In this document: piece by piece, positions 20,151 through 60,066 of the stretch
Numbering within the stretch: the first letter of the stretch is position 1
Layout of the letters: the number at the start of each line of letters is the position of its first letter
Assembly (NCBI GenBank): GCA_964413165.1
Contig: CAYPSF010000002.1
Location: 7,324-71,323, forward strand
Length of the DNA: 64,000 bases
Origin: an uncultured Bifidobacteriaceae bacterium
GTDB lineage: Bacteria; Verrucomicrobiota; Verrucomicrobiia; Limisphaerales; UBA11358
Direction: 5' to 3'
Position numbers and translations under genes: made by a program
Notes under the pieces: model-generated
The model's input: only the letters and a program-made list of their open reading frames with translations
The model's database searches: none
What the model was told of the DNA's origin: nothing

Positions 20151-23078
20151 TTAATGCGCCAACCGATAAAATTTCACCGCGTCGGATTCGGGTATCCGAA
20201 TCGGGTCAACGGCGCCGCCGGAACCGGTCCAGGGGCCCGATACATTGGTGCTCACCTGGAGCGTCGCCGCCGGCCAGGTCCAATAGACAAGTTTTTCATC
20301 CGGATAGAGAGCGAGGCCGATCTTCAACGGATCACCCGGCAGCGAGTCCGTGGCAAAATAGGCACGCGTGACCGTGCCCAGCTGGGAATTGGCCGGGTTG
20401 CCCAGGGTAACGCGAAAGAACGTACCCGGCTGCAGGAGGGCGGCCGGCCAGGGAATGTTTGTGACCAGAATGCCCGGAACCAGATGCAGCGTACCATTCG
20501 TCACCACCGTGCCATCCGCCGTCTCGATACGGTAATCCACGGAAACCGTGTTGGTGACAAAGGAACTGAGACCGACGGGAATGCCGTTGGGCATTGAAGC
20601 CGTATCATTTGCGTTGGTCCCGACCCCGAGGCCCACCGAGATGGGCGATGCGGGAGGCGTTTGCAATCGAAGAATGGAGAGGGAATTGGCCGGGAACGTA
20701 CAAACAAAATTGGTTCCGGCGTTGGTGATGTTGGTGGCAACGGGAAACACTTTCGTTGGCGAGGCGGGTGAATTTTCGTCCAACGGGCTGGCGGAGGTCA
20801 ACTGCTCCAGGCCGGCCACGGGGACAATCGACGAAAGGCCGTCCAGGTTGAAGGTGGTGGTGATCGGATTGGCGGAGACGTTCGCCGCCTTGACAATGAC
20901 CTGGCCGCTGGCCCGGGCGTAACTGGCCGAGGCATAAAGCGGCAGGATGACGGGATAATTCACATCGAGGACCAAGGCACTGTTGAGATAACATTGGATG
21001 CGGGTGCCATTGAGGACGATGCGGATGTCGTACCATTGACCGGTAACAACGGAACCGGGAACACCCTCGCCGATGATGGTTTTGGCGCCATTGACCATTT
21101 GTTCGACGGCGGTCTGCGTATTGTTCCAGCCGGCCACATTGAACCAGGTCCAGTTATTGTCATCGAGCCAGTTGAACAAAATGAGGAAGCCCTCGCTGCC
21201 GCCGACCTTTCGGGCACGGAGGGTGATGGTGTAATTGCTCCAGTTGGAGTTGCCGGTGGTCGAACGGCAGTCGGTGGCAACGGCGGTCTGCTGGTAAACG
21301 CCGCCGCTGGTGCCCCAGGTGCCGTTAAAAACCTGCCAGCCCAGAGCGCCGGAAGTGAAATCACTTTGATAAAGCGTCACGCCGTTGCTGGTGACGACAA
21401 TATTGGTGTATTGGACCGACGTATTCCACGACCCCAGACCAATGGCGCCACGCGGCGGCGGGTTGGTCGTGCCACCGGTGAAAGTGACGGCCAGGGGCAA
21501 GACGACGTCGCCGCGATTCTGCGCAAACATCTGCTGAACGTAATAAGAAGGTGTGCCATACACCTGCGAGCCGGTAAAATAGATCAGGTCCGGGTTCCAG
21601 TTTTTGTTGTTCAGGTTGGCAAAGAGCGGGGCGTAAGAGGCCATCGTCACGACATCCGAGTTGCGTTCCATGCCGGTCATGAAGGCCGCTTCGCCGAGCG
21701 CACCGGCCAGATTGCCGTTGCCGGCGCCAGCGGTTACAGCATATTCACCCACGTAAACTTTCGGGCCGCTACGGCTATACGTGTCATAGCGGGTGGCGTT
21801 GATCATGAAGAAGCCGGGATCGGCATAATAGTGTTCATCGCTGATCTCCACCGGGCGGGAGGCGGGGAGGCCGCCGAAGTTATTGGCCACGATTTGGATA
21901 TCGGGGTAATTGCTTTTGATGGCGTCGTAGAAGAGCGCGTAGCGGTCACTGTAGGCCGAGCCGCCGTTTTCGTTGCCGATTTCGATGTATTTCAGTTTGA
22001 ACGGCGCGGGATGGCCAGCGGCGGCACGCAATGCGCCCCAGTTGCTGTTGGTCGGACCATTCGCATATTCAACGGCATCCAGCGCGTCCTGCACGTACGG
22101 CCCCATCTGAGCGAGCGGCACCGAGTCGCCGACGTAAAAGACATCCATGCCACAATTGATCACGAACAACGATTCCGCGCCGATGTCCTCGCACAGCTGG
22201 AGGTACTCGTAATAACCAAGGCCATTGTCCACGTAATAACCCCAGAGATTATGTTGCAGCCAGCGGTCCCCGACCGGCCCGATAGTCCGTTTCCAGTTGT
22301 ACAGGTTGGCGAGAGAATCGCCATTGACCCAGCTGCCGCCGGGAAACCGCATGAACGCGGGTTGCAGCCCGGTGAGCATATTGGCCAGGTCGGGACGCAG
22401 GCCATTGGTGCGGTTATGGAACGTCTGGCGGGGGAATAATGAAACCACATCAAGCCACACCTTCCCCACTTGCGAGAAGGCGATGGACAACCGGCTGTTG
22501 GCATTGCTGCCCAGTGCGACCAGCGGCAGGGAGAAATGCTGCCAGCCGGTAGTCAGGCCCGTCACGGTGCCCAGTGCATAAATCTGGCTGCCATTGGCGC
22601 TTTCCAGGCGGACGGAGAGAGCGCCGCCAAAGCCGGCGGAACAGCGCGCGTACAGGTTCAAGTCGTAAGTCTGGCCCGCCTGGAGATCCATTCCCCAATA
22701 ACCGTTATTCGCAATTCCCACGCTGCCGACGCCGGAAGTGAGGGTCAGGCTGGCCGAATACAGATTACTCGCATTCAGCGGCAGCGAGGAATCGGCGAAC
22801 CAGGACCCGCTGCCCGTCCCAGTCGTGATGAACTGCCAGAAATTGGTGTTGCCCGGCTCTTCAAAGGAGCGGTTCCGCACCATTTCCGCATAAATCCCGC
22901 CATCACCGGCGCTGTTGATCTCCTCGAAAAAAATGCCGAACAGGTTGGAACTGATGGTCGCTCCCGGCTGGTTCGCCTGGATGGCGATGGTAGCAGCAGA
23001 TTGCGCCTGAACCGCGAGGGCCGTCAGGGTGATCAGCGCCAAAACCAACCGGCGGCAACTTTTAAAAACGACCTTCAT
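20151..23078 (-). CDS. Secreted GH51 alpha-L-arabinofuranosidase, long form with Ig-like C-terminal extension and FYRL-type end
   Basis: GH51 blocks GGIYAEMVRNRSFE, FMRFPGGSWVNG, EIGNENGG and ASYAPLF. Signal peptide follows MKVVFKS (ATG 23078). Ends in ...YWTWP...VKFYRLAH. Confidence 0.85.
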   Translation of the reverse strand: MKVVFKSCRRLVLALITLTALAVQAQSAATIAIQANQPGATISSNLFGIFFEEINSAGDGGIYAEMVRNRSFEEPGNTNFWQFITTGTGSGSWFADSSLPLNASNLYSASLTLTSGVGSVGIANNGYWGMDLQAGQTYDLNLYARCSAGFGGALSVRLESANGSQIYALGTVTGLTTGWQHFSLPLVALGSNANSRLSIAFSQVGKVWLDVVSLFPRQTFHNRTNGLRPDLANMLTGLQPAFMRFPGGSWVNGDSLANLYNWKRTIGPVGDRWLQHNLWGYYVDNGLGYYEYLQLCEDIGAESLFVINCGMDVFYVGDSVPLAQMGPYVQDALDAVEYANGPTNSNWGALRAAAGHPAPFKLKYIEIGNENGGSAYSDRYALFYDAIKSNYPDIQIVANNFGGLPASRPVEISDEHYYADPGFFMINATRYDTYSRSGPKVYVGEYAVTAGAGNGNLAGALGEAAFMTGMERNSDVVTMASYAPLFANLNNKNWNPDLIYFTGSQVYGTPSYYVQQMFAQNRGDVVLPLAVTFTGGTTNPPPRGAIGLGSWNTSVQYTNIVVTSNGVTLYQSDFTSGALGWQVFNGTWGTSGGVYQQTAVATDCRSTTGNSNWSNYTITLRARKVGGSEGFLILFNWLDDNNWTWFNVAGWNNTQTAVEQMVNGAKTIIGEGVPGSVVTGQWYDIRIVLNGTRIQCYLNSALVLDVNYPVILPLYASASYARASGQVIVKAANVSANPITTTFNLDGLSSIVPVAGLEQLTSASPLDENSPASPTKVFPVATNITNAGTNFVCTFPANSLSILRLQTPPASPISVGLGVGTNANDTASMPNGIPVGLSSFVTNTVSVDYRIETADGTVVTNGTLHLVPGILVTNIPWPAALLQPGTFFRVTLGNPANSQLGTVTRAYFATDSLPGDPLKIGLALYPDEKLVYWTWPAATLQVSTNVSGPWTGSGGAVDPIRIPESDAVKFYRLAH

Positions 23079-23116
23079 CCGGCCAAATTCACTTTTGCAT
23101 CTCAGGGATTGAATCA

Positions 23117-25834
23117 TCACGGCAATTGCAGCCGGAAGAACATCTGATTGTTCGTGGGTGCGAGGCTCAGGAAATTGATGCCATTGGTCGGAAGCAGCAC
23201 ACCGGCGACCGGCACCCACGCTGAACCGAAACCAAGATTGGGCGAACTGCCCAACACCAGCCCGTTGGTCCAGGCCGGCCAACTGAGGGTCAAGGCTGAC
23301 GCATTGTTCGCGAGGTTGATGCCGGCGGCGGTGATTTGTTCGATGGGCAAGGATTGCGAGTTAATTTGCACCGAATCGATCTGGCCGTTGAAGTTGGTGT
23401 CCGCAGAGAACTGGCTGCGCCCAAAATAATTTATCGAACCGGCCACATCGGACGGCAGAAGATTGATACTGGGATTCACGGCCACGGCCTGGCCGTTGAC
23501 AAACATCACCGCCTCGCGGCCATCGAGCGTCACCGCCACGTGCGTCCAGACGTTCACCGGCAGGGGGCTGGGCGCGTCCACGTGCCGGGCCTCGGAACCG
23601 CCGTTGGGGGTGATTTCAAAACGCAACGCGCCATTGTTGGCCTTGGCCGTGAGCATGGCATAGCTGGTGGTTCCTGAACCGAAATCGAAGATGCGCTGCC
23701 AGACATTGCCGCCGCCCCACTTGACCCACGCGGCAAACGTGCGCAGGGCACCCACGCCAACCGGTAGGGCAACGTATTCTGACGCACTGTTGTTCAGATT
23801 CAAAACGGGGCCGCGGATGGAGTCGGCGGGTGTGGTCGCCCCGTTTTGCAGCGCGCCATCAAACAGCCCATTGGCATCGGCGGCATCGCCGTTGAAGGGA
23901 TAGAACGCCGCCCAATTCGAGCTGGTCGCGTTGGGCAGCACGTCCACAAAATTGGTCGCCAGACGGCCGAGGCTGTCGACGGCCGCCAGCACAATGCGAT
24001 GAAAACCGTTGGTGGCTTCCACACCGGTGGCCGGAATGGCGTAACTTCCGCCGCCGACTCCCGGCAGCGGACCGAACACGACGTTGGTGACGCCCGCGTC
24101 ACGGAACTCAACCGTCCAGGTGAGCCCGGTGGCGGACAAGGGTGTATCGGCAAAATCGGTCGCGGTACCAGTGAACTGCAGGGTGTCGCCGGGGCGGTAA
24201 TACGAGCCGGCGGATGGCGAGGTAATCACCGGTTGCGGCGCAACTATTTCGTTCGCGGAAAGCGCCCGGCCGTAAATGCGGATGGAACCGATCTGGCCGT
24301 TGAAGTAGGGGTCGTTGGTGAAAGGACTGCGGCCGAACCAGGTATTGGTGGGCGCGAAGTCCGGCGGCGTCAACGTCATCGAAGTGTTGGTCGCCACCGG
24401 CGCGCCGTTGACGTAAAGAATTCCGCGCGCGCCGTCCGTGGTCACGGCCACGTGCGTCCAGACATTGGTCGGCAAAGGATTGGGCGCGTCCAGAGTCCGT
24501 TCACCGGCGCTGCCCGAGGAAGTGATGGTGAATCGGGGCAATCCATTGGCAGCTTGCGGCGTGATGAAGGCGTATTTGTTGGTATTGCGGCCAAAGTCGA
24601 GGATCCGCTGCCAGGGCAAGCCGCCATTCCATTTGAACACGGCGGCAAAGGTGCAGCCGTTGGCCACGCCGTCGGGCAGATTGACATACTGATTCGTTCC
24701 GCTGAACACGAGCACGTTGCCGAGCAAGGGATCGTTGTGAACGTAAGCGCCGTTCTGGATCAAACCGTAATACTGGCCGTTGTCATCGCGGGCATCCCGC
24801 TGGAAGCGATAGGCCGCCGACCAATCGTTCGTGAACAGCGGCCAATCATCCGGTGTCCAGGACAACGGCTCGATGTCATACGTGGGTGCCCCATTGGCGT
24901 TGCCGTCGTAATAATGGTAGCCGAAATATTCGACGCCACCTTCATTGAGAATGCCGATCTGGCCCGGGCCGATAAATTTGCCGGTCGTCTTCAAAAAAAG
25001 CGTGCCGCCGCTGAAGACCATGTTGGCGTTGTTGCGGTCGAAAAACGGGCCGGTGATGTTAGCGCTGCGACCGACGCGAATGTTGTAAGTGCTGTCCACC
25101 CCGGCACAACAGGCGCCCCAATTGACGAACAGGTAATAAAAACCTCCGTGAGTATAAAGATAGGAGGCCTCAATCGGGTCGCCGCTGGCGGCATTGTCGG
25201 TGGCTACCGAGTAAACCGTCAGGTTGGTGGTGCTGCGTTTACCGGTGGCCGCATCGAGCTGAATCATCCGGATGCCGCCAAAAAAGGACCCCAAGGACAT
25301 CCACAAATTGCTGGAGGCGTCGAACATGACGCTCGGATCGATGGCGTTATAAGTGACGCTGGAACTGGACTGGATGACCGCGCCCTGGTCGGTCCACAGA
25401 TAGCCCGGGTCGCTGGGATCGAGCGTAGGATTGGTGGCGAGCCCGATCGCCGAGACCTGGCTGCCGAAGGTGGAGATGGCATAGTACAGGTGATACTGGC
25501 CGTTGAAGTAGATGACATCCGGCGCCCAGAAAGTCCCGGCGAATCCCGGCACGGAATTCGTGGTCCAGACCGGCGAATTGGCGAACACCGGCGGGCCGGT
25601 CACCCAATAGGTTTTATCAGCGGACGATTTCGAGCTGATCCCGAACCCGGTGCTGAAAACGTAATAGCGACCATTGCACGGAATCATGGCCGAGGGATCG
25701 TGAACTCCGAGGCTGCCGCGCAAGATGGACGGAGCGGCCTGAAGCAAACCGGGGAGGATGCCGACCACCAGGATGATGAGGCTGAATTGACCGGCGGCGA
25801 ACCGGCGGAACCAAGGGATCAAGATCATTTGCAT
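23117..25834 (-). CDS. Secreted GH43 (arabinanase-like) with two LamG-like domains, an Ig-like domain and an FYRL-type end; paralogue of 14999-17443
   Basis: GVHDPSAMIPCNGRYYVFSTG, FWAPDVIYFNGQYHLYY. LamG-like FAAVFKWNGGLPWQRILDFG and FAAWVKWGGGNVWQRIFDFG. Ends in ...LTLSWP...MFFRLQLP. Confidence 0.85.
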   Translation of the reverse strand: MQMILIPWFRRFAAGQFSLIILVVGILPGLLQAAPSILRGSLGVHDPSAMIPCNGRYYVFSTGFGISSKSSADKTYWVTGPPVFANSPVWTTNSVPGFAGTFWAPDVIYFNGQYHLYYAISTFGSQVSAIGLATNPTLDPSDPGYLWTDQGAVIQSSSSVTYNAIDPSVMFDASSNLWMSLGSFFGGIRMIQLDAATGKRSTTNLTVYSVATDNAASGDPIEASYLYTHGGFYYLFVNWGACCAGVDSTYNIRVGRSANITGPFFDRNNANMVFSGGTLFLKTTGKFIGPGQIGILNEGGVEYFGYHYYDGNANGAPTYDIEPLSWTPDDWPLFTNDWSAAYRFQRDARDDNGQYYGLIQNGAYVHNDPLLGNVLVFSGTNQYVNLPDGVANGCTFAAVFKWNGGLPWQRILDFGRNTNKYAFITPQAANGLPRFTITSSGSAGERTLDAPNPLPTNVWTHVAVTTDGARGILYVNGAPVATNTSMTLTPPDFAPTNTWFGRSPFTNDPYFNGQIGSIRIYGRALSANEIVAPQPVITSPSAGSYYRPGDTLQFTGTATDFADTPLSATGLTWTVEFRDAGVTNVVFGPLPGVGGGSYAIPATGVEATNGFHRIVLAAVDSLGRLATNFVDVLPNATSSNWAAFYPFNGDAADANGLFDGALQNGATTPADSIRGPVLNLNNSASEYVALPVGVGALRTFAAWVKWGGGNVWQRIFDFGSGTTSYAMLTAKANNGALRFEITPNGGSEARHVDAPSPLPVNVWTHVAVTLDGREAVMFVNGQAVAVNPSINLLPSDVAGSINYFGRSQFSADTNFNGQIDSVQINSQSLPIEQITAAGINLANNASALTLSWPAWTNGLVLGSSPNLGFGSAWVPVAGVLLPTNGINFLSLAPTNNQMFFRLQLP

Positions 25835-31072: not shown

Positions 31073-33016
31073 TTACAAACCAATCCGATAGAATCGGGTA
31101 CCGGATGTTGGCATGGGAATCACATAAGGACTGGTGCCCGATACGTTGGTCCAGCCGGCCGGATTATTCAGGCTGGTGTTCGATTGCAAACTGGCACCGG
31201 CAACATTCCAGGTCAGCGTCAGGTTGCCGCCACCGATGGCGCTTTTTACCTTGGGACTGTCAAAAACCCTGGCCTGGAAACTATCCACTGCAATGGTCTT
31301 GTGGACGTTGTTCACCACGTCCTCGGCGAACACTCCCGCAAACATGGTCGGCGAGCCGTTGATCCACGTCGGTTGGGTGAGGACATCCCATGGAACTCCG
31401 TCGATGTAGTAGTGCCACACGCCGGCGGTGCGACTGATGACGACGTTCATGGGGATGGCGCTGTTGAAACCAAAGCCGAAATATTGGCCGCCGTTGTTGA
31501 ACGGCACGCCCGCCCCGTTGGTTTGCACGTTTTCCGAGTAACGTTCCTTGCCGGCGAAAGTGATGCTGCCGGCGCGGGTATGCTGCAGTGAGCTCGGTCC
31601 CACGATGATGCCAAACTGGTCGAAACTGGCCGTGGGCGGGAACGGTTGCGGGAAGAGCGCGGTTACCTGCAAATCTTCCGGGCCGGTGAATCCAAGGGTC
31701 CCCAATTCCACGCCCAGGTTCTCGTTTACGTTCAAGGCATTTCCGCCATTGTAATCGCTGCTGGTGGTGGTGATGTTCAGCAAACCATTGACAGTATCCA
31801 GGACCAGATTGGTATCGCTCGCCAGCAATGAGGTGCCAGTCCCGGACAACCGGCTCGGGAAGCCGGTTCCCACACCATTACTGTCCTGGATGCCACCGGC
31901 CGCCGAACTGAAATTCAACGCGAGGCTGCCCTTGGGCTGGATGACATAAAGCGGGGCGACGCTGCTGGTGATGCTGCCGAGAGAATTGGTAATGACCACG
32001 GTATAATTGCCGGGAATGGTCACGTCCGATATGGCCAGGGTGCCATTGGTTGCACCGGTGATCGGGATGTTATTGGTGCACCACTGGTAAGAAACGGGCG
32101 ATTTGGTGCTGTCGGAGACAGTAACAGAGAACGATGCGGGATTGTCCAGATCAATGATTTGTTTTTGCGGCTGAACCGCAATGCTGGGAGGAGAATTCCC
32201 GGAAACGCTTAGGGAAAAAGATTTCAAGTCGGCGGTCCACGGACTGTCATTAAACACGTCCTGGGCTACAACTCCCACAAACAGGTCGGAGGCGGCATCC
32301 AAGCCAATTACCGTGGGCGGTTCCGGTGTTCCCGTTCCATCAATGGCTGAATTGGGCATGCGGTCCAGACCGTTGACCGTCACGCTCCACACCCCGCCGA
32401 TCCGTTTGATTTGAACGGTCATTCCGGTCCCCACATCCAATCCGAAAAAGCGCGGAAAGGCATCCGAGCCCCCGGACGTCAATACTCCAAAACCTTCATT
32501 GTCCCGCACCGCATTGGTATTAATCGCGTCAAAGTTGATAAAACCGGCCCGCACCATGTTGGCCGGATCGGTGCCCACGACCAGGCAAAGCTGGTCCGGT
32601 TGCAACACCAAATCCGTGTTGGTGTTCCCCGGCAACTTGTCGGCGGGAATATTGGTAAAAACGGCAGTGGCAGTAAAATCGTTGCCCCCGGTAAAACCGA
32701 GGGATGACAGATTGAAACCGACAACCGTGGCTGAACCCAGCGCCACCTGGCCATTGAAATCCGCGCCAGGCGAAGTGTGCATGTGCAGGAGGCCTGCCCC
32801 CGTACTCAGCAGCAGATTGGTGTCGTTGCCCGTAATATCCGCGCCCGTGCCCGGCATGCGCAGACTGAACCCCGTCCCGACCCCGTTGGTGTCGAGGACT
32901 GTTCCTCCCGCGGAAGTAAAATTCAGCGTGAGGGATGATGCCTGCACTGAGGCAGGAATTAAAAAGCCGGCCAGCATCAGGCCCAGCCCGGCGATTCGCA
33001 TTTTTTTGTTTTTCAT
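31073..33016 (-). CDS. Secreted protein of unknown function: two copies of a ~240-aa beta-sandwich (ConA/LamG-like) domain flanking an Ig-like domain, with an FYRL-type end
   Basis: Signal peptide MKNKKMRIAGLGLMLAGFLIPASVQA. Internal duplication: SLTLNFTSAGGTVLDTNGVGTGFSLRMPGTG... versus SLALNFSSAAGGIQDSNGVGTGFPSRLSGTG.... The Ig I-set-like segment is PPSIAVQPQKQ...YTVVITNSLGS. Ends in ...LTLTWN...TRFYRIGL. Confidence 0.7.
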   Translation of the reverse strand: MKNKKMRIAGLGLMLAGFLIPASVQASSLTLNFTSAGGTVLDTNGVGTGFSLRMPGTGADITGNDTNLLLSTGAGLLHMHTSPGADFNGQVALGSATVVGFNLSSLGFTGGNDFTATAVFTNIPADKLPGNTNTDLVLQPDQLCLVVGTDPANMVRAGFINFDAINTNAVRDNEGFGVLTSGGSDAFPRFFGLDVGTGMTVQIKRIGGVWSVTVNGLDRMPNSAIDGTGTPEPPTVIGLDAASDLFVGVVAQDVFNDSPWTADLKSFSLSVSGNSPPSIAVQPQKQIIDLDNPASFSVTVSDSTKSPVSYQWCTNNIPITGATNGTLAISDVTIPGNYTVVITNSLGSITSSVAPLYVIQPKGSLALNFSSAAGGIQDSNGVGTGFPSRLSGTGTSLLASDTNLVLDTVNGLLNITTTSSDYNGGNALNVNENLGVELGTLGFTGPEDLQVTALFPQPFPPTASFDQFGIIVGPSSLQHTRAGSITFAGKERYSENVQTNGAGVPFNNGGQYFGFGFNSAIPMNVVISRTAGVWHYYIDGVPWDVLTQPTWINGSPTMFAGVFAEDVVNNVHKTIAVDSFQARVFDSPKVKSAIGGGNLTLTWNVAGASLQSNTSLNNPAGWTNVSGTSPYVIPMPTSGTRFYRIGL

Positions 33017-33067: not shown

Positions 33068-33886
33068 TCACCACCAGAAATACACTCCGGCGATGTTTTG
33101 GGAGCGAATGATGATGTCGGGGTCAGACACATTGATCCGGTGCCATTCAACATGATTATCGAGAAAGGCCACATTATTGCCCACCGGCAGGCCCCAACTA
33201 AGATGGGGCGTTTGATGGAGTTCACTAAAAGCGCCTTTAACCGTAGTCCAATTGTCAGAACTGAGATTGGCATTGTTCTGCACCGAAATGACGGCACAGG
33301 TAAGCAAAACACGGTCGGACGGTGGCGGCGCCTGTGCGGTGCCACCCAGGTTGTCGATCCGGATTTTCGTCTGGATGAAACTGAAATTGAAATTGGAAAT
33401 AATAAGGTGGGACCCGATGCTGGCGTAATTGGCAATATCGGGAAAAGTGGCGGCATAACCGGTGACCCGGACGGCCGGGTTGTTTGTGAAATACCATAAT
33501 TCGTCGGTGTCCTGATCGGTGAACATCGGGTCGTACATGATGTGCCGTTGCGCACCATTATCGGTCAGCATGTCCGCTGTCTTGATAGGTATATCCCAAA
33601 GCCAGTTCGCCGGGGTAAAAGTGGTGGGCGGGTTATAGTTATTGGGAAGATTGTCCGCGGCATCGTTGGCATACATCCGCAAGGAGGTCGCGTATTGCCG
33701 CTGGTTGCTGGCATCCTGAATACGCTTGGCCTTGTCTTTGGCTTTGGCCAGTGCCGGCAACAGGATCGCCGCCAGAATGGCAATGATGGCAATCACCACC
33801 AGCAATTCAATCAAGGTGAACGCCCCGGCGCGACGTTGGCGCACAAGCGAAAACCCGGGCAGGCGATTCTGGGGATTGAAAATCAT
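33068..33886 (-). CDS. Prepilin-type N-terminal cleavage/methylation protein of the DUF1559 / H-X9-DG-like family
   Basis: [30 protein letters not shown] class-III signal. C-terminal variant motif [13 protein letters not shown]. An alternative start lies at 33910. Confidence 0.8.
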
Positions 33887-33937
33887 TTTGTTATACACTG
33901 GATTATACACTGGATTAAATTATAAACTGGATTAATT

Positions 33938-42697: not shown

Positions 42698-45600
42698 CTA
42701 GAACGGTGCCAGCCGATAGAATACGGCGTTGGTCGTACCCGGTGTGTTCGTATAGCCATTAGCGGCGTCGGTTCCCGGAATGGTGACCCAATTGGTGCTC
42801 AGACCGATCGTCGCTGGATTGGTCTGGCTTTGCAAATGCAGGCCCGTCCAAGTGTCCGGCCACGACAGGACCAACTGCCCGCCCGGACTCGTCGCGCTGA
42901 TGGCTGGCAACGGCGCGATGCCAGACACTGTGACTGATCCGTCCAGCGCCAGATTGTTTACAAAGGTGAAACCCGGCAAAATAATCAGCATGGCAGCACC
43001 GCCGGTGACCGGCTGGCTGAAGATGGTGAACTGGTCTCCGACAGCGAGGGCCGGGCCGACATTGAGCAACTTCAAGGTGCCGCCGGTATAGTTGATGGCG
43101 TGGGTGACCGTGAAAACGCTGTTCGACCGCGGCGACAACGACTTGTTCAGGACCGCCCAAACAGTTCCCGATGAAATGTTCAGGTTGTTCGACACGATCA
43201 ACGTGCCGACCGCGCTGGCAGAGGCCGCAACCAGAGTGCCCCCTTTCACGTTCACGTCGCCCTCGGCCGCACTGACCACCAGCGTGCCGTTGCTGACCGT
43301 GGTGGGGCCGGTGTAAGTGTTCGCGCCGGTCAGGGTCACCGTGCCGGAGCCATTTTGCACCACCGCGCCCGGGGTCAGCCCATCGCCGATAACGTTGGCG
43401 ATCGTCACGTTGTCCGAGCGGTCGAACACGAGCGTGCCCTCGTTCACGATGGAACCGCTGCCGATGGAGCCGGTCGTACCGCCATTGCCAACTTGCAGCG
43501 TCGTCGCGTTGTTGCTGATCGTCGTGCTGCCCGGATAACTGTTATTGGCGGTAACGATTACCTTGTTCGTCAGCACCGTCAAGGCACCCGAGTTTGCCGC
43601 CGACGAGTCAGTGACCATACTGGTGATTCGGTTGGTGAACAAGTAGCTGCTCTCCGCATGCATGAAAATGAGTGTTCGGGTGAGGAAATTGGCACCCGCA
43701 GTGTTGGTAAACACGACATTGCCAACAATGGTGCCGGCGCCGGGATTGATGCCGTCACCGAGTTGAATGGCACCGCCGGCAATGAACGTGCCGCCGGTAT
43801 AAGTGTTTGTGCCGGCGAGCACGATCCAACCGGGGTTAGGGTTGAGGTTATCCTTCAACACCCGGCCGGTGCCGACAATGCTGTTGCTGTAACCGCGGGC
43901 TGCGGGGGAGAACTCTTGAGCGGTAAAGAGGAGCGTGCCGTTGTTGGTGATCGCACTGCTGGCTGACGCGCCTTGGTTGCCATCAATAAACTGGAACGTG
44001 GCCTCCGGATCTATTTGCGTCCAACCCGCATAGGTGTTCCCCGGCCCGGCGTAGGCCTTCACCACACCCGCATGCACAATCACATTTCCCGTGCCGCTGA
44101 TGATGGAATTGTAGGACGACAACACCGTCGGAGCCGTGCTGTTGAAGACCAGCAGGCTGTAATTGACGATCGCGCGGTCGGCCAAAGAACCGGCGGCACC
44201 GCCATTGCCGACCTGCAACATGCCCGCGTTGATGGTCGAGCCACCAGTATAGGTTTCATTGGCGGCCAGGATAATCGTGCCGGGGCCGTTGACGGTGAGG
44301 GAGCCGGTGCCGCTGATGACACCGCTGTTGGTCGTGGTGTTGGAGCGATTGAAGATCAGGCTGCCGTTGTCGGTGACGCCGCCGCTGCCGAGCGTGCCAC
44401 TGGTGCCGCCGTTACCGATTTGCAGCGTTCCGTTGGCAATCGTCGTCACGCCTGAGTACGTATTGGCGCCGGTCAAAGCCCACCAGCCGGTGCCGTTCTT
44501 CGTCAGGATCGTTGTGCCGCCGTTGTCTCCGAGCGAGGCCTCGAGCAGGTTGGTGTCCGTGCTGGTGCCGGTCAGAGTCAGCACGCGCGCGCCGGTTCCG
44601 ACCAGGCCCACAGAGCCGGTGTTGTTCAAGTCCAATCGGCCGGTACCGGGGGCGCCGGAGGCGTCAATCGTGCCGCCGCCGGTGCGCACCGTGAAGAGGC
44701 GGTCGATGCTGGCCGCCGGACCGGTGTATTGCAACGTGCCGCCGTTGAAGACCAGATTTGTCGCGCTGCTGCTTGCCGCCCCAATGTCACTGGCAGTACC
44801 GCCGTTGGCCAATGCGCTGACGCTCACGATACCGGCATTGAACTTCGTGACGCCGGTGTAAGTGTTGGCGCCGCCGGACAGGGTCAGTGTGTTATTGCCG
44901 CTCTTGGTCAAACCGCCCGTACCGCCGATGTTGTTCGCGCCGCTGGAAGCGATGCTGTACACGTTGGTGGTGTTGTTGACGGTAACGCCTCCCGGTATGA
45001 TGGCCGCGGCGACCGTCACGCTCAAGTTTGCGGTGGTCGTGTCGTCAAACAACGCCGCGCCGCCATTGACGAACGGCCCCGGCGTGGCGCCGACCTTCCA
45101 GTCCGTCGAAGTCGTGTTCCAATTGCCATCGGTCGCGCCGGTCCAGGTATAGGCCAGCCCGGTGATGTTCAGTCTGACCGTGTTGGTAAGGATCGAGAGA
45201 TAGCCACCTCCGCCAATCAAACTATCCAGGCTGACGGTTGGCGGCGAACCGGTGGTCCAGTGAAACAACGGATAGCTTTGTCCGGGGGTTAATGTGCCAC
45301 TGTTCACGTTGACGAAGAGCGTGCCAGGGGCGGTCAGCGTGCCCGCCCAGAGCGGCGCGGTGGCCGTGCTGTTGATGTTATAGAATTCCGTCATCGAGCC
45401 GTCACCGGTGGTGAGCGTTCCGGGCGTTACTTGCGTGCCCGTGTCCGTGACCGCAACGGTCGCGCCGGGCGACACACTGATGTCGCCCGAGCCGGTCTTG
45501 GTGCCTTGAAACCACACTTTGCCGCCGCTGATGGTCGTCGCCCCGCTGTAAGCGCTCGCACCCGAAAGCGTGAGGATGCCCGGACCGACTTTGTTCAGGG

Positions 45601-46771: not shown

Positions 46772-46880
46772 AAGTTGTATTTCATGCCACACCGATTGCG
46801 ACGGTGATCCACTTCGCGTTTTTCGTGAAGCTTCCCACGGCACGGAACAGGATATTTTTATCTTCGTTAGCCCGGCTTTA

Positions 46881-48734
46881 TTACGGCGCCAGACGATAGA
46901 ACACGGACCCGTTGATCACATTCAGTGTGTTCGTATAACCATTGGCGCCGTCGGTTCCCGCAATCGTGACCCAACTGGTGCTCAGACCGATCGCCGCTGG
47001 ATTGGTCTGGCTTTGTAAATGCAGGCCCGTCCAAGTGTCCGGCCACGACAGGACCAACTGTCCGCCCGAACTCGTCGCACTGATGGCTGGCGACGGCGCG
47101 AAGCCAGACACTGTGATCGATCCGTCCACAGCCAGATTATTTGCGAAGGTGACACCCGGCAAAACAATCGTCATGGCAGCACCACCGGTGACCGGCTGGC
47201 TGAAGACGATGAATTTGTCTCCGGGCGCCAAGGCCGGGCCGACATTAAGCAACTTCAAGGTGCCGCCGGCATTGTTGACATCGCCGGCAACCGTAAAAGT
47301 GCTGTTTGACGGCGATAACGTCTTGTTCAACGAAACCAAAACGGTTCCTGATGTCATGTTCATATTGCTCGCGACGGTCAACGTGCCGATCGCTCCGGCA
47401 GCCGCTGGAGCAAGAGTGCCGCCGCTCACGTTCATGTCGCCGCCGACCAAGCCGACCACCAACGCACCGTTGCTGACCGTGGTCGGACCGGTATAAGTGT
47501 TCGTGCCGGCAAGCGTGAGCGTGCCGGAACCGAGTTTGGTGAGCGTGCCGCCGCTGCTGGTCAGTGCGGACGCGAACGTCACGTTTTGGCCGGCGGTGTC
47601 AAAACTATACGCTTGATTGGGCGACGGGTCGAAGCGCGACGAGTAATCGAAGATGTTGTTTGTGCTGAATCCCAGCGTGCCGCCGGTGAAGGAAATGGGG
47701 TTGGCACTGCTGCCGAGCGGGCCGGTGAAGCCGTTATCAGCGCCGCCGGCGATCACTTCGCCGCCGCTAAGAAGGACATTGCCGATGAAGCTGCTGGCGG
47801 CCGATGAAAGCGTAAGCGTGCCGGCATTAACCTGCAGATCCAGAGTACCGGGGAAACCGCCAATGGCCAAACCGATTGTGCCCGACGAAGGAGCATCCCA
47901 TTCCAACAGGGCCGGAATGGAGCCGTCATTATTTTGGAGAGTCAGCGGCGCAGTGACAATGGAAGATTGAAGCAGAGTGGAACTCCTGAGAATCAAGGTG
48001 CCGCCGTTAAGAATCACCGGGCCTTGTATGCTGCTGCTGCCAATTCCCCCGGAAAATGGGTTGCGTCCGGTCGTCCAAATCATTGTGCCGGGTCCTGATT
48101 TTGCTATGGACGTCTGGATGCCACCCGCGCCAATCAGGTCATTGGTAATGTGAAAATCTCCCGTGCCTTGAAAGAAAAAAGTATGATTGCCGCCGCCGCC
48201 AAATCGCACCCTCAAGTTCGGAGTAAAAATCATCGGATTCACTGAATTGTTTACAAAATTTGCTATCTCTCCACCCGCTCCTCCCCAAATGGCCTCAAGC
48301 GAATTGGTCATGCTGTCACTCCCCAGTTGAAAGCTCGCGGCACCGCTATCCATGATGATACTTTTGAATCGAATACCCGAGGACGCAGTATTGGCTACCG
48401 TAGTGTCAAAGGTCACTGGACTGACTTGATGCGCCGTGAGATGAACAACCAGTCCAACACCGGCTGCAGAAGATCCTGTTTGAAGGCCGCTGTTAGATCG
48501 GCCAATTACCGGACCGATGGATTGGCCGTCGAATAGCATGGTGTCCCCGCCTCCGTGGTTAGGAAGAGGCACGCCATTGGGGTTCCAATTGGTGGCGGCG
48601 GCGAGGTCCAGTTGCCCGCCCATGGAGTTGGTCCAGGTAAAGGTCGTCTGACCAAAGAACGCCAGCGCGGCAAGGGCGCTGCACAAAACGATGGTGAGTT
48701 TGGTTTTCACAAGCAGCAAGGATTGGATTTCCAT
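46881..48734 (-). CDS. PATR protein paralogue 2, a short form with an internal deletion relative to paralogues 1 and 3
   Basis: N-terminal ~400 aa and C-terminal ~200 aa are colinear with paralogue 1. The start is ambiguous: ATG at 48734, or GTG at 48710, which is homologous to the MKTKL start of the paralogues. Confidence 0.75.
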   Translation of the reverse strand: MEIQSLLLVKTKLTIVLCSALAALAFFGQTTFTWTNSMGGQLDLAAATNWNPNGVPLPNHGGGDTMLFDGQSIGPVIGRSNSGLQTGSSAAGVGLVVHLTAHQVSPVTFDTTVANTASSGIRFKSIIMDSGAASFQLGSDSMTNSLEAIWGGAGGEIANFVNNSVNPMIFTPNLRVRFGGGGNHTFFFQGTGDFHITNDLIGAGGIQTSIAKSGPGTMIWTTGRNPFSGGIGSSSIQGPVILNGGTLILRSSTLLQSSIVTAPLTLQNNDGSIPALLEWDAPSSGTIGLAIGGFPGTLDLQVNAGTLTLSSAASSFIGNVLLSGGEVIAGGADNGFTGPLGSSANPISFTGGTLGFSTNNIFDYSSRFDPSPNQAYSFDTAGQNVTFASALTSSGGTLTKLGSGTLTLAGTNTYTGPTTVSNGALVVGLVGGDMNVSGGTLAPAAAGAIGTLTVASNMNMTSGTVLVSLNKTLSPSNSTFTVAGDVNNAGGTLKLLNVGPALAPGDKFIVFSQPVTGGAAMTIVLPGVTFANNLAVDGSITVSGFAPSPAISATSSGGQLVLSWPDTWTGLHLQSQTNPAAIGLSTSWVTIAGTDGANGYTNTLNVINGSVFYRLAP

Positions 48735-48848
48735 CGCTGTAACTGGCGTCAGGCGCGGAATGTGATTAACAGCGCTTGCCGTTCCAATGGATCGTGTTTT
48801 CACAGGCGATAACCACCGGCGGTTCGGTCAACTTAAACAATGGAAAGC

Positions 48849-48882
48849 GTGAGTGGGTGGTGTTCGCACACCACCCACTCAC
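48849..48882 (-). terminator. Perfect 15-bp-stem hairpin between PATR paralogues 3 and 2 (terminator/attenuator candidate)
   Basis: GTGAGTGGGTGGTGT-TCGC-ACACCACCCACTCAC, 37 nt after the paralogue-3 stop. The downstream minus-strand sequence GCTTTCCATTGTTT is only weakly U-rich. Confidence 0.5.
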
Positions 48883-48918
48883 TTGCTACTTCAATTTATT
48901 CGTGTCAATTCAACTTTA

Positions 48919-51900
48919 TTACGGCGCCAAGCGATAGAACACGGCCCCGTTGGTCGGATTGATTGTGTTCGTGTAACCATTCGCGAGGTCGGTTCCCGGG
49001 ATGGTGACCCAATTGGTCTTCAAACCGGCCGCCAGCGTATTCGTCTGGACTTGCACATGCATGCCCAACGAACCGATCGGCCACGACAGCACCACCTGCC
49101 CGGCCGGATGCGTCACGGTAATTACCGGTGACACTGCCGGGATGGTGGACACCGTGATTGACCCGTCCGCAGCCAGGTTGTTGGCGAAGGTGACGCCCGC
49201 CGGCGGAACAATCACCACGCCAGCACCGCCGGTGACCGGCTTGCTGAAGATGGTGAACTTGTCTCCGACCGCCAGGGCCGGGCCGACATTGACCACCTGC
49301 AAACTGCCTCCGGTATAGTTGATGCCGTTGGTGACCGAGTAAACGCTGTTCGACTGGGGCGACAGCGACTTGTTCAGGACAGCCAAAACAGTTCCCGATG
49401 AAATATTCAGGTTGTTCGACACGATCAATGTGCCGACCGCGCTGGGAGAGACCGCAGCCAGAGTGCCGCCTTTCACGTTCACGTCGCCGGCCGCCGCGGT
49501 GAGCACCAGCGTACCGTTGCTGACCGTGATGGAACCGGTGGTCAGATTAGTGCTGTAGGGCGCGGTAAGCGTCAAGGTGCCAGAACCGGCTTGCACGACT
49601 GAACCCTGGGTCACCCCGCCGCTGATAACGTTGGCCAGCGTCACGCTGTCCGAGCGGTTGAAGATGAGCGTGCCCTCGTTCACGACGCCACCGCTGCCGA
49701 TGGAGCCGCTCGTACCGCCGTTGCCAACTTGCAGCGTCGACGTGCTGTTGCTGATGGTCGTGCTGCCCGGATAACTGTTATTGCCGGTAAGGATTACCTT
49801 GTTCGTGAGCACCAGCAAGGCACCCGAGTTGAACCCCGGCGAGTCAGTTACCACACTGGTGATTGAGCCCGGGAACGTGACGCTGCTATCCGCATAATTG
49901 AATATGAGGGTTCGGGCCAGGAGATTGGCCGTGGCGGTGTTGGTAAACACTACGTTGCCAACAATCGTGCCAGCGCCGACATTGATACCGTCGCCGAGTT
50001 GAATTGCGCCGCCGGCGATGAACGTGCCGCCGGTATAAGTGTTATTTGTGCCGGCGATCACGATCCAACCGGGATTGGCGTTGTTGTTGTCTTTCAACAC
50101 CCGGCCGGTTCCGACAATGTTGTTGCTGCAACCGCGGGCGGCGGGGGAAAACTCCTGACCGGTGAAGAAGAGCGTGCCGTTGTTGGTGATAACTGGGCTG
50201 GTTGACGCACCTTGATTGCCATCAACAAACTGGAACGTGGCGCCCGGATCTATTTGCGTCCAACCCGTATAGGTGTTCCCCGGCTGGCCGTAAGCTTTTA
50301 CAAAACCCGCATGCACAATCACGTTTCCCGTGCCGCTGATAATGGAATTGAAGCTGGACAAAACAGTCGGAGCCGTGCTGTTGAAAACGAGCAGGCCGTT
50401 ATCGACTATCCCGCGGTCGGGCATAGCACCAACGGCGCCACCAGTGCCAACCTGCAACGTGCCCGCGTTGATGGTCGAGCCACCCGTATAGGTTTCATTT
50501 GCGGCCAGGACAATTGTGCCGGGGCCGTTGACAGAGACGGAGCCGGTGCCGCTGATGACACTGCTGTTGGTCAGGGCGTCGGAGCGATTGAAGATCAGGC
50601 TGCCGTTGTCGGTGACGGCGCCACTGCCGAGAGTGCCGCTGGTGCCGCCGTTGCCGATTTGCAGCGTTCCGTTGGCAATCGTAGTCACGCCCGAATACGT
50701 ATTGGTGCCGGTCAAAACCCACAAGCCAGCGCCGCTCTTCGTCAGTATCGTTGCGCCGCCGTTGTTACCGAGCGAAGCCGCGAGTAAGTTGGTGTCCGTG
50801 TTGAGGCCGGTCAGCGTCAGCACCCGCGCGCCGGTTCCGACCAGGCCCACGGAGCCCGTGTTATTCAAGTTCAATCCGCCGGTACCGGGGGTACTGGAGG
50901 AGTCAATCGTTCCGCCGCCGGTGCGAACCGCAAAGAGGCGGTCAATGGACGCCGCCGGACCGGTGTATTGCAACGTGCCGCCATTGAAGACCAGATTGGT
51001 CACGCTGCTGCTTGCAGCCCCAATGTCACTGGCGGAACCGCCGTTAGCCAGCGCGCTGACGCTCACGATACCAGCATTGAATTTCGTGACGCCGGTATAA
51101 GTGTTGGCGCCGCCGGCCAGCGTCAGCATGACGTTGCCGTTCTTGGTCAGGCCGCCGCTGCCGCCGATGTTATTCGCGCCGCTGGAGGTGATGGTGTAAA
51201 CGTTCGTGCTGGTATTGACGGTAACACCTCCCGGCGAGACAGCCGTGGCAACGGTCACACTCAGGTTGGCGGTGGCCGAGTCATCGAACAAAGCCGCGCC
51301 GCCATTGACGAACGGCCCCGGGGTGGCGCCGACCTTCCAGTCCGTCGAAGTCGTGTTCCAATTGCCATCGGTCGCGCCGGTCCAGGTATAGGCCAGGCCG
51401 GTGATGTTCAGTCTGACCGTGTTGGCACTGATCGAGAGATTGCCAGCCGCGCCAATCAAGGTATCCAGGCTGACGGTCGGCGCCGAGCCGCTGATCCAGG
51501 CGAACAGCGGATAGCTTTGCCCAACGGTGAACGTGCCGCTGTTCACGTTGACGAAGAGCGTGCCGGGGGCGGTCAGCGTGCTCGCCGCGAGCGGCGCGGT
51601 GGCCGTGCTGTTGATGTTATTGAATTCCGTCGTCGAGCCGTCGCCGGTGGTGAGCGTTCCGGGCGTTACTTGCGTGCCCGTATCGGTAACCCCAACGGTT
51701 GCGCCGGCCGCCACAGTGATGTTGCCCGAGCCGGTCTTTGAGCCGACAAACACCAGTTTGCCCCCGCTGACGGTGGTCGCCCCACTGTAAGAACTCGCGC
51801 CCGAAAGCGTGAGGTTGCCAGGCCCGGATTTGGTGAGCGTGCCGCCGGTGCTGGCGAGTCCGGTCGCGAACGTCACGCTTTGTCCGATCGTGTCAAAGCT

Positions 51901-53007: not shown

Positions 53008-53133
53008 AAACGCTGAGGGTTGGACTCCCAACGCCGTGGCTGACGCCCGGCGCGGGATTTGCAGGGTTTGGGGGTTTGGAGTTTTCATTTTGTTTATCTG
53101 GGTTTTCGGTTTAGCGGTGAGGACTTAAAAGGG

Positions 53134-54024
<891 letters not shown>

Positions 54025-57804: not shown

Positions 57805-60066
57805 TTACGGCCAGGTGACCCGATAATATGCTGCGCTTGGGCCGGCGGAATTATCAACGTTGGTAGTGGTATATGTTTTGGCCGCGGCGGTTATCCCCGT
57901 CGCGACCGTGGTCCACGCAATCGGAGGATTCAAAGCCGCGGCTTTTTGCAGGGTATAGGTTGGCGTGGACAGTGACATTTCCGGCGGTGGTGAATTCCAT
58001 ACGAGCGTAACCGCAGACGGCCCGCCGGGGTAAACCTTCTGGATTCGGAACGGCTCCACTTTCGCATAGCTGACGCCGTCATACCAGGTGCGGTTGGTGC
58101 TGCCGCCAAGAGTGGTGCTGCCCGTCCGCAGGGCATTGCCACCTACGATGATGTTGAGCGTGTTGCTGGCCGAAGCCACAGCTCGCCCGAGATACGCTTG
58201 ATAGAGATAATTGTTGACCGGCGTGGTGTTGGTGAGCACCAGGGCCGTGTCCTCGCTTGCGGCCTGGACCTGTTGGCATTTCTCGGAGCGGAATGTCTGC
58301 ATGTCGCCCGGGGTTAGTCCCGCAAGGATCCGCCAGTCGAGGTTGGTGGTGGCGGTCCCCCAAAAATCGACCCACACATCGTAGGTGCCGGGCCCCGGGG
58401 TGGTCACCTGTGTCGTAATCAGGGGCGGCGTTTCGGCCACCGAATCGGCCGAGCTCAGGACGGTTCCGCCATTGCCGACACCCGCTTGAGAATGCCACTG
58501 GTTGGCTGACGCACTCAAGGTGAGGGTCCCGCCATTGGTCAGCGTGGTGTTGCCGCCGACCCCGGCCGTCGCATCCATGTAATGCATCGGCCCGACGACC
58601 TCCGCCCGATGTTCCACCATGCCGACTGGCGCACAGTCGTAATTCTGCGCAGCGTTGGCAGCATTGTAAGTCCCGCGAAACCAAAGCAGGGCAGTATTGT
58701 TGTTGTCCCACACCGGCACAATCGGACGAAGATTGTCACGAACCGAGTTCTGAGTAATGGGTGTCCAGGCAAAGCTCGCTCCGTGATTGGTGGTGACCCC
58801 TTTCCAGATTTCGCGCACGGCCGAATACGGCTGGTTCGTGTCGAACACGCCGGGCGTGACCGCGCGTGGATCGTACTTCGTGGACAGGTAGATGGTGTTG
58901 GGATTATTCGGGTTGAGAGCGCCAAGGCCGACGTAGTCCGCCTCCGCGGAATACAACTTGTAACCAGCCTGGCATAGATATGTCGAAATCCAATTCGTGC
59001 CGTTCCAGCGGCAGAAAAAGAACGCGTGATTTGGATCCTCCGTGTCGGGGTAGCCGGGCGGGTGAATGAACTGGTTAATGCGCGCATGAATGACGGCCTC
59101 CACGGTGCCATCGGGGTACCACTGCACGTCGGAGTTCCAGCAGCGATAGTTGGTTTGTCCCTGCGGCATCACCGTGCCATTGGAGAACACCAGCATGAAG
59201 TCCGACGAGAGCGGTGCGTTTGTGTCGTTAAGGTTGCCGTCCACCAATGTTCCGTCAGTTTTAAAACTCATGCCGTTGCTGATGTACCCGTGATAGATGC
59301 TGGTGAGCGTGTCTCGTGGATGCGATTCGGTGCAGATAAAGTCAATCCGATCCAGACCATTGTCACAAAATCTGTAGTATCCGGGGTTGTAGCCGGAGCC
59401 CGGATAACTTCGGTTCAGTTTTCCGTAGTATGTCCAAGTGTCGCCGTAGTTGGTCGAAACCAGGATGTTCATGCTCTTGATGTCCAGGGATCGAACGAAG
59501 GTGTAGGTCCGGCCTTCGGCGGGCAGATAGTGGGGATTCGAATAGCTGGCCATTTCGCTGCTGGTGGCGCCGAGGGCTTGCCAGTCGAATGTTGTAGACG
59601 GGCTCCAACTGGTGCCGTCAAAGACACTGAAATAACTCAGAAAGTTTTGGTTGTGACCCGTCCATTGCGCCAGATACTTGCCGTCCGGCCGGACCATCAT
59701 TCCCGGCGTGTTATGATCGTCCGGGCCCAGCGTTCCGCTGGCCAGGATTGTGTACCGTTTCGACGATCCGCTCTGAAGCTCGAACAGGCTGGCTTCAATC
59801 GCTCCATTGCGGGGCGAACCGCCCAAGCCGCTGCCGTTGGCGTCCACCCCCACCACCAGCTTGCCACCCGCCGGATCAACGATGGCGCGCTCGTCTGAAT
59901 ACCACGTCCACGCGCCGTTATCGCTGAACTGGATCAAATTGCCATTGGCGATGTCCTTTGTCTGGGCGCAGGCAACATTGGTCCCGATCAACGCAGCAAG
60001 CACCCCACGCCAAAAGGTCTGCCCGACAGGAGACCCGTAACGGTGAAATGGAGCCTTCATGACCAT
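57805..60066 (-). CDS. Secreted beta-propeller protein (BNR_4-like?) with C-terminal beta-sandwich and FYRL-type (YYRV) end; function unknown
   Basis: Signal peptide. WTWYSDERAIV and GPDDHNTPGMMVRPDGKY resemble BNR-4 repeat family motifs. Ends in ...VTLVWN...AAYYRVTWP. It sits between GH8 and GH115. Confidence 0.45.
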   Translation of the reverse strand: MVMKAPFHRYGSPVGQTFWRGVLAALIGTNVACAQTKDIANGNLIQFSDNGAWTWYSDERAIVDPAGGKLVVGVDANGSGLGGSPRNGAIEASLFELQSGSSKRYTILASGTLGPDDHNTPGMMVRPDGKYLAQWTGHNQNFLSYFSVFDGTSWSPSTTFDWQALGATSSEMASYSNPHYLPAEGRTYTFVRSLDIKSMNILVSTNYGDTWTYYGKLNRSYPGSGYNPGYYRFCDNGLDRIDFICTESHPRDTLTSIYHGYISNGMSFKTDGTLVDGNLNDTNAPLSSDFMLVFSNGTVMPQGQTNYRCWNSDVQWYPDGTVEAVIHARINQFIHPPGYPDTEDPNHAFFFCRWNGTNWISTYLCQAGYKLYSAEADYVGLGALNPNNPNTIYLSTKYDPRAVTPGVFDTNQPYSAVREIWKGVTTNHGASFAWTPITQNSVRDNLRPIVPVWDNNNTALLWFRGTYNAANAAQNYDCAPVGMVEHRAEVVGPMHYMDATAGVGGNTTLTNGGTLTLSASANQWHSQAGVGNGGTVLSSADSVAETPPLITTQVTTPGPGTYDVWVDFWGTATTNLDWRILAGLTPGDMQTFRSEKCQQVQAASEDTALVLTNTTPVNNYLYQAYLGRAVASASNTLNIIVGGNALRTGSTTLGGSTNRTWYDGVSYAKVEPFRIQKVYPGGPSAVTLVWNSPPPEMSLSTPTYTLQKAAALNPPIAWTTVATGITAAAKTYTTTNVDNSAGPSAAYYRVTWP

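Follow-up and report, generated by a model that had tools for sequence, protein, structure and literature searches.

Eight proteins encoded on a 64,000-nucleotide stretch of DNA from an uncultured member of the Limisphaerales (GenBank assembly GCA_964413165.1, contig CAYPSF010000002.1, positions 7,324 to 71,323; this whole stretch is called the window in the following) share a C-terminal tail which turns out to be a homologous, Fn3-like module with members in thousands of clusters of proteins. The module stands at the extreme end of exported proteins that are otherwise unrelated, is frequently repeated in tandem and has, by the organism labels obtained, so far been found only in Verrucomicrobia, apart from a few doubtful bins. 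As regards its role, we tentatively read the tail as a shared localisation or attachment module which is carried by a subset of the exported proteins and would bind one common partner in the envelope or outside the cell; the probability we attach to this reading is about 0.42.

Eight C-terminal tails in a hemicellulose-utilisation locus

The window represents a hemicellulose-utilisation locus which, along with glycoside hydrolases (GH) of families GH26, GH130, GH27, GH5, GH43, GH51, GH8 and GH115, encodes a major facilitator superfamily transporter as well as AraC and ROK regulators. Eight of its open reading frames (ORFs), all located on the minus strand, end in the tail, with the stop codon following 0 to 3 residues after a closing (F/Y/L)(F/Y)R(L/V/I) motif. 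Upstream of this closing strand, W-(P/N) and L-Q as well as a further invariant Trp are shared by all eight ORFs. The carriers comprise three PATR proteins, two GH43 enzymes with a LamG domain, one GH51 enzyme, one weak-Ig protein and one BNR_4 propeller, and inspection of their N-termini reveals a signal-peptide-like sequence in each of the eight. The length of the tails ranges from 52 to 75 residues (Table 1), so that the uniform length of about 55 residues assumed in an earlier, sequence-only reading of this DNA does not hold. The interval 42698-42890, to which that reading assigned the feature, comprises the stop codon and the tail of PATR1, while the domain proper extends over 42701-42895.

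A hidden Markov model (HMM) built from the eight tails matches exclusively these eight among the 870 six-frame ORFs of the window, in every case at the C-terminus, with scores of 54 to 90 bits compared to 7 bits for the next best ORF; the claim that eight secreted proteins of the window end in one motif is thus borne out. Of the 521 ORFs with 60 or more residues, 8 end in the bare motif, and these are exactly the eight carriers; the four-residue core of the motif is encountered 13 times in 93,321 translated residues of the window. Since the eight-tail model is circular, it was replaced by a model of 146 copies from outside the window, each of which is less than 45% identical to any window tail. 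This external model detects seven of the eight tails with E-values between 4e-14 and 1e-6 and thereby confirms the presence of one homologous module on unrelated signal-peptide proteins, with the GH51 tail as a probable eighth case. Leave-one-out models, made from five to seven window tails each, turned out to be too weak and missed the tails of the long GH51 enzyme, the BNR propeller, PATR1 and PATR3.

The tail of the long GH51 enzyme, which is not significant with the external model (E = 0.43), aligns in register at every conserved column, and in an alignment-driven AlphaFold2 model (predicted local distance difference test, pLDDT, 72) its strands follow the same order as those of the PATR1 tail. 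It forms the end of an extension of about 170 residues which is absent from two GH51 paralogs and for which a homologue search detected no relatives. Comparisons by hhalign using single-sequence queries were uninformative, as the BNR tail serving as positive control failed as well. We regard the GH51 tail as a probable, though not proven, member of the family which has diverged very far. In a separate observation, the segment NIPWPAALLQPGTFFRVTL, located upstream of the tail within the same extension (approximately 20400-20560, minus strand), resembles a repeat, in degenerate form, of the W-P...L-Q...FFRV pattern; none of the HMMs detects it.

The three PATR paralogs, which consist of 1381, 640 and 1389 residues, are encoded in tandem (42698-53088, minus strand) and are near-identical in their signal peptides, in their mature N-termini (GQTT(F/Y)TWTNS) and in their tails. 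In each of them PF12951 is the only Pfam match and the tail constitutes the C-terminus; neither an autotransporter barrel nor a PEP-CTERM is present at the C-terminus of any of the three.

While eight signal-peptide proteins of the window carry the tail, about eleven do not. Among the proteins of the window without the tail are GH26, GH27, GH5, GH8 and GH115 enzymes as well as further GH43 and GH51 proteins and a cytoplasmic GH51 paralog, in agreement with the sequence-only reading, which had reported the tail to be missing from the secreted GH5, GH26, GH27 and GH115 enzymes. Among the three GH51 paralogs (17559-20135, 20151-23282 and 25858-28272, all on the minus strand) one is cytoplasmic and lacks the tail, one is secreted and lacks it, and one is secreted and carries it, so that the locus itself offers a natural comparison of enzymes with and without the tail. 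Because tail-less secreted proteins, including a GH51 paralog, exist, Sec export does not depend on the tail, which marks a subset of the exported proteins.

Table 1. Positions of the tail modules and of prepilin-like genes within the window (aa, amino acids; E, E-value obtained with the external model unless stated otherwise).
Feature	Position	Strand	Length	Remarks
PATR1 tail module	42701..42895	-	65 aa	stop codon 42698-42700; AlphaFold2 pLDDT 88; E 3.5e-9
PATR2 tail module	46884..47078	-	65 aa	E 1.2e-11
PATR3 tail module	48922..49116	-	65 aa	E 9.7e-9
GH43+LamG protein A tail module	15002..15187	-	62 aa	E 4.2e-14
GH43+LamG protein B tail module	23120..23314	-	65 aa	E 9e-14
Weak-Ig "DUP" protein (647 aa) tail module	31076..31243	-	56 aa	E 2.5e-10
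BNR_4 propeller tail module	57808..58032	-	75 aa	length includes loop insertions; E 1.1e-6
Long GH51 tail, probable, highly divergent	20154..20309	-	52 aa	motif in register; AlphaFold2 pLDDT 72; E 0.43
Prepilin-like (N_methyl) gene	33068..33910	-		52 bp upstream of DUP carrier; PF07963/TIGR02532; tentative associate
Prepilin-like (N_methyl) gene	53134..54024	-		46 bp upstream of PATR3; tentative associate
Third prepilin-like gene	1..792	+		3' part cut by window edge; blastp E 5e-31 to pseudopilin of locus L038; H..FADGHAEMHKW

Size, placement and fold of the family

An exhaustive profile search covering 1.84 billion representative proteins yields 6,869 clusters with E <= 1e-3, of which 197 reach E <= 1e-10. 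The module is terminal in 140 of the 144 best representatives (141 after re-inspection), and proteins with a single copy carry it at most eight residues from the C-terminus in 82 of 84 cases. At 79 genome loci, which were retrieved with the pattern of one sub-family, the stop codon of complete carrier ORFs follows 0 to 4 codons past the module in 84 of 85, and in a further set the module is C-terminal in 44 of 45. Overall, about 97 to 99% of the carriers show C-terminal placement. True exceptions are P0180, P0183 and P0240 (the latter being the exception in the set of 45), in all of which the module directly follows the signal peptide. Two apparent exceptions were re-inspected: P0086 has one more, weak copy at its end, and P0124 is presumably junk from read-through. 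In none of the carrier sets examined is the module flanked by other domains on both sides.

Tandem arrays of two to eight copies are present in 60 of the 144 top representatives, 58 of which reach the C-terminus with their array. The invariant terminal position proposed from the window sequence therefore stands as a strong preference, qualified by the arrays and by the three N-terminal cases. Common occurrence at internal positions, by which the sequence-only reading would have recognised a generic Fn3 module, is in essence not what is found, as internal copies are confined to homotypic arrays reaching the protein end. Internal copies possess the same FYRL strand, after which comes a short linker rich in Pro. 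Since they, too, end in FYRL, this motif constitutes the last beta-strand of the domain and not a peptide signal requiring a free C-terminus.

Two observations concern particular array proteins. In P0074 (960 residues, eight module copies), for which no Pfam family is matched at all, seven internal copies contain Gln or Glu in place of the Arg of this strand (YYQL or FYEL), and the terminal copy reads FYRL. A family of small secreted proteins of about 300 to 580 residues (P0075, P0077, P0082, P0092 and P0222-P0230) combines a conserved domain of about 80 residues at the N-terminus with three to seven module copies in tandem and nothing else. The N-terminal domain is characterised by D(F/Y)xI(D/E)W(F/Y)(S/T)(L/I/V)D.GGG, and P0075 has a precomputed match to PF08410.

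The cargo is highly varied. Fifty full-length carriers contain 47 Pfam families, among which PATR (17 carriers), LamG_3 (10), Ig_3 (10) and Big_7 (7) are accompanied by lipases, an M6 peptidase, FG-GAP, NHL, GSDH and a PL4-like domain; subtilase, RCC1-like and sortilin/BNR proteins are added by other carrier sets. Most carriers are not carbohydrate-active enzymes (CAZymes), and those which appear to be full-length start with signal peptides.

The 79 loci bear the labels Verrucomicrobiia, Limisphaerales, Pedosphaera or "subdivision 3" in their metagenome-assembled genomes (MAGs), bar a few implausible bins, and the branch with tandem arrays is labelled Pedosphaera or Verrucomicrobiota. The number of copies per genome is high, as a single MAG accounts for no fewer than 24 of the top 80 loci. 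Carrier contigs of verrucomicrobial type also occur in bins labelled Candidatus Sulfotelmatobacter, Bifidobacteriaceae, Rhizomicrobium and Angelobacter (L012, L019, L046, L058, L076 and others). Such non-verrucomicrobial bins are probably mislabelled or contaminated.

Searches with seven of the window tails (all but that of PATR2) against Pfam-A and NCBIfam gave no match at E <= 1, which includes Pfam fn3 (PF00041) and the curated C-terminal domains (CTDs) of the type IX secretion system (T9SS; PF18962/TIGR04183, and PF13585 for type B). Likewise, no HMM match to PEP-CTERM (TIGR02595/PF07589) was obtained, and the PEP motif, the hydrophobic stretch and the basic tail are all absent. The statement that the tail is neither a T9SS CTD nor a PEP-CTERM domain, to which the missing transmembrane helix contributes, is hereby corroborated. 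A lipoprotein or transmembrane anchor was rejected, the tails being devoid of a hydrophobic segment, and so was an outer membrane protein beta-signal, the tails mostly ending in Pro or in polar residues without a terminal aromatic.

AlphaFold2, provided with the PATR1 tail and an alignment of 52 sequences, predicts a compact all-beta domain of six strands (pLDDT 88, pTM 0.74). Comparison of this model with the Protein Data Bank (PDB) by Foldseek returns Fn3 domains or Fn3-containing chains, such as monobodies and cytokine receptors, for each of the top 50 matches. The Fn3-like fold suggested earlier is thus retained, although the matches on which it is based are weak. The tail is accordingly predicted to be a self-folding, Fn3-like beta-sandwich of about 62 residues and six strands. 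The register of the sequence would fit the Fn3 strands A, B (harbouring the Trp), C, C', E and F, upon which the protein ends; as the linkers between tandem copies amount to only 4 to 7 residues, there is no room for a seventh (G) strand. Conservation is strongest for W, P, G, L-Q, W and F-Y-R-L, and by strand alternation the Gln of LQ as well as the Phe and Arg of FYRL should be exposed. A PDB profile search gave a local match of 55 residues to CBM32/discoidin (F5/8 type C) modules (4zy9, 2rv9; E about 1e-3), which involves one strand motif only. This fold assignment was rejected because Foldseek returned nothing but Fn3; moreover, the match does not extend over the length of the jelly roll, which comprises about 140 residues compared to about 62 in the module.

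Possible roles of the module

In the reading we prefer, the module, which sits at the extreme end of Sec-exported PATR proteins, LamG/Ig giants, glycoside hydrolases, lipases and peptidases, would attach its cargo non-covalently to one partner in the envelope or in the extracellular space, leading to surface retention or display, and tandem copies would add avidity or reach. We favour such a localisation role because the module is terminal at either end of its carriers, is fused to varied cargo beyond CAZymes, is limited to certain lineages, is present in many copies per genome and conserves residues which are presumably exposed. Tandem arrays and small proteins made up of them suggest anchoring of the avidity type, and the arrays together with the use of either terminus are better reconciled with binding or anchoring than with a cleaved sorting tag. 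The binding function, the shared partner and a patch of the exposed Gln, Phe and Arg as contact site are what we infer from these features. Of the C-terminal sorting or anchoring tag put forward in the sequence-only reading, anchoring is hence the part which we would keep, whereas a one-off tag is not what the 60 array-bearing representatives display, but rather a folded domain that can be repeated.

Several points weigh against an attachment role. The Foldseek matches to Fn3 are weak (best E 0.028, TM-scores 0.45 to 0.54), and the six-stranded sandwich without G strand, together with its exposed patch, was read from the DSSP string and the sequence register. The organism labels cover only two sub-branches of the family. 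Bacterial enzymes frequently contain Fn3 modules as mere spacers or inert linkers. Finally, the Arg of FYRL is kept in 140 of 140 terminal copies compared to 81 of 94 internal ones (p = 4e-6), with the internal copies lacking it stemming from six proteins. This asymmetry hints that the last copy is special, and it would fit a signal read by some machinery better than it fits avidity.

Such a signal is the essence of the foremost alternative, which we consider unlikely: the terminal copy might be an export recognition domain read by an outer-membrane pathway, probably one resembling a type II secretion system (T2SS) or a pseudopilus with DUF1559/H-X9-DG-like prepilins, while untagged proteins would stay in the periplasm. 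A precedent is provided by the Fn3 domain of Pel3/PelI, whose loops are part of the T2SS secretion signal (PMC7949064). The tail-less secreted enzymes of the window are mostly exo-acting and could plausibly be periplasmic. Furthermore, clustering of the neighbouring genes at the 79 loci reveals one dominant family of 40 genes in 37 loci, all of which encode a prepilin-type N-terminal methylation motif. A gene of this kind lies immediately downstream on the same strand of 34 of the 79 carriers compared to 12 of 220 other positions (odds ratio 13, p = 1.5e-13), usually at a distance of no more than 40 bp, and 25 of the 34 carriers thus paired are LamG/Ig giants while 7 are PATR proteins. In the window itself two pseudopilin genes are found about 50 bp upstream of the carriers DUP and PATR3. 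Six of six prepilin-like proteins tested score above the cut-off of TIGR02532/PF07963, and one of them also matches DUF1559 (PF07596); with the equivalog models of GspG, GspH, GspI and GspJ all tested proteins remain below cut-off. By eye, their globular parts of about 250 residues share an H-x9-(F)xDGH motif. In the reverse direction, 11 of 70 evaluable, independent pseudopilin relatives from metagenomes follow an HMM-positive tail ORF, a number which rises to about 16 if divergent ORFs ending in FYR are included, and the tail ORFs at these loci are located on the strand of the pseudopilin in 14 of 14 cases.

Among the 34 pairs, a set chosen by tail similarity, the tails are about 69% identical, compared to about 21% for the carrier bodies and about 25% for the globular parts of the pseudopilins. 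The low identities of bodies and globular parts indicate that the pairs are old. Conservation of the tail while the bodies diverged would be consistent with one shared partner, with the proviso that tail similarity was the very basis of selection. At the same time, binding of the tail to the variable domain of the adjacent pseudopilins is improbable, given how much better the tail is conserved than these, which argues against the export recognition domain. Moreover, the two kinds of gene do not always go together. The window-edge pseudopilin is of the subfamily that is encountered downstream of carriers at other loci. We predicted that the gene upstream of it would carry the tail. This prediction failed: in the full-length copy at locus L164 the pseudopilin (8361-9323, minus strand) follows by 110 bp a signal-peptide protein of 692 residues (9433-11511, minus strand) which has no Pfam match and no tail and ends in ...TPFTD. 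No pseudopilin neighbour of BNR-type or GH43-type tails is present on the contigs examined, which belong to frameshift-ridden assemblies, and six of the eight window carriers are without an adjacent one. Fusions of a prepilin with a tail are absent from the collected sets, and arrays of up to eight copies as well as N-terminal placement would be unexpected for a secretion signal. The association may therefore concern large secreted proteins in general and not the tail.

Two further observations were made on these neighbour genes. In the pseudopilin encoded at 33068-33910 (minus strand) a stretch of 21 residues (approximately residues 207-232) resembles LQSQTN...NWVTV.G of the tail, and in searches with tail HMMs this protein ranked first among the "unrelated" ORFs time and again (E = 0.006 to 0.08), which may be due to chance. 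At one metagenome locus (L098) several prepilin-like genes in tandem represent a local expansion of the family.

Less likely still than export recognition is a role as carbohydrate-binding module (CBM), in which the tail would bind a polysaccharide substrate or particle rather than the cell, so that enzymes and adhesins would be targeted to glycans of plants or microbes. Such a role would suit the hemicellulose-degradation locus in the window, the conserved aromatic, Gln, Arg and Asn residues, which resemble CBM binding sites, and the terminal position and tandem copies, both of which are usual for CBMs. The faint profile likeness to the CBM32/discoidin chitosan-binding modules mentioned above also points in this direction, yet the fold neighbours are Fn3 and not CBM32, and the match is confined to a short strand motif, the CBM32 domain being twice the length of the module. 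In addition, the predominance of non-CAZymes among the carriers (PATR 17/50, LamG 10/50, Ig 10/50, together with lipases, peptidases, GSDH and subtilase) is not what substrate targeting would lead one to expect, and one strongly conserved sequence on such diverse cargo suggests a single invariant ligand.

About equally improbable in our view is a passive or maturation role, in which an Fn3-like cap would act as spacer, folding aid, handle for an export chaperone or auto-inhibitor and would perhaps be removed after export. The common inertness of Fn3 linkers in bacterial enzymes speaks for it, and internal array copies could be segments of a stalk. However, a spacer needs no terminal place, whereas the module is almost always terminal with nothing behind it; small proteins made up of arrays have nothing to space or to stabilise; and the conservation of predicted surface residues, in conjunction with a tail more conserved than the carrier body, implies a specific interaction. 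A precedent for maturation is the C-terminal FnIII domain of Xanthomonas CbsA, which mediates the interaction with SecB, inhibits activity and is missing from the secreted form (PMC9190976).

The least probable proposal combines display with the neighbouring genes: the tail might be the cargo handle of an export or display pathway specific to the Planctomycetes-Verrucomicrobia-Chlamydiae (PVC) superphylum and built on the massively expanded prepilin-like (DUF1559/H-X9-DG-like) proteins, in which the module lacking its G strand would dock to a pseudopilus or pseudopilin, for instance with its open F strand pairing as an edge strand, whereupon the cargo would be pushed through a secretin or kept on a short surface fibre. 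If true, this would account for the terminal tag as well as for the many pseudopilin genes beside large secreted proteins.

The module offers an entry point to the question of how Verrucomicrobia of the Limisphaerales/Pedosphaera group, which abound in soil and freshwater as degraders of polysaccharides, deliver their enzymes and giant proteins of adhesin-like type to the outside of the cell. As an attachment module occurring in thousands of clusters and absent from Pfam and NCBIfam, it would mark the surface or extracellular proteome of mostly uncultured Verrucomicrobia and would serve as a handle for finding the partner or the machinery. It might, in addition, give a first hint at what the large pseudopilin-like families of the PVC superphylum do. 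If all more far-reaching roles are set aside, a curated domain model is still warranted and would improve annotation.

Comparison with known systems

In the searchable literature we found no description of a verrucomicrobial C-terminal domain of this type or of the function of DUF1559. Among the closest analogies in organisation is the T9SS CTD of Bacteroidota, which is likewise a small C-terminal beta-sandwich on unrelated Sec-exported proteins, restricted to a lineage and present in dozens of copies per genome, in the manner of an address label used throughout a proteome. In contrast to it, the module forms arrays and can be N-terminal, and no HMM match to Por_Secre_tail (PF18962/TIGR04183) exists. 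To our knowledge, the host phylum does not possess a T9SS. PEP-CTERM/exosortase signals (TIGR02595) and autotransporter barrels, with which PATR-repeat proteins usually end, occupy the same site as the tail on such proteins in bacteria of the PVC group, but of their hallmarks (PEP motif, transmembrane helix, basic tail and beta-barrel) the module shows none.

Structurally, the best neighbours are Fn3 domains (PF00041; for example CtXyl5A, 5g56, and the Fn3-like protein 3mpc of C. thermocellum; TM-scores 0.45 to 0.54). As judged from the sequence, the B-strand Trp and an aromatic-rich F strand would be in register with Fn3. Yet the module, with about 62 residues and six strands, the last of which would correspond to F, falls short of the about 90 residues and seven strands of Fn3, and it is terminal, whereas bacterial Fn3 domains are usually internal linkers. 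Domains of Fn3 fold on secreted plant-cell-wall enzymes are known from Pel3/PelI of Pectobacterium/Dickeya (PMC7949064) and from CbsA of Xanthomonas oryzae (PMC9190976), where they affect export. These are traits of single proteins and not a tag used across a proteome, no sequence relationship to the module is detectable, and in PelI the Fn3 domain is N-terminal.

In their use, finally, SLH domains, GW and LysM modules, choline-binding repeats and dockerins resemble the module most closely in that they are placed at either terminus, occur in tandem copies and are combined with varied cargo in particular lineages. They differ from it in fold and sequence, and the host of the module is diderm. 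Their known partners are secondary cell-wall polymers, lipoteichoic acid, peptidoglycan and cohesins.

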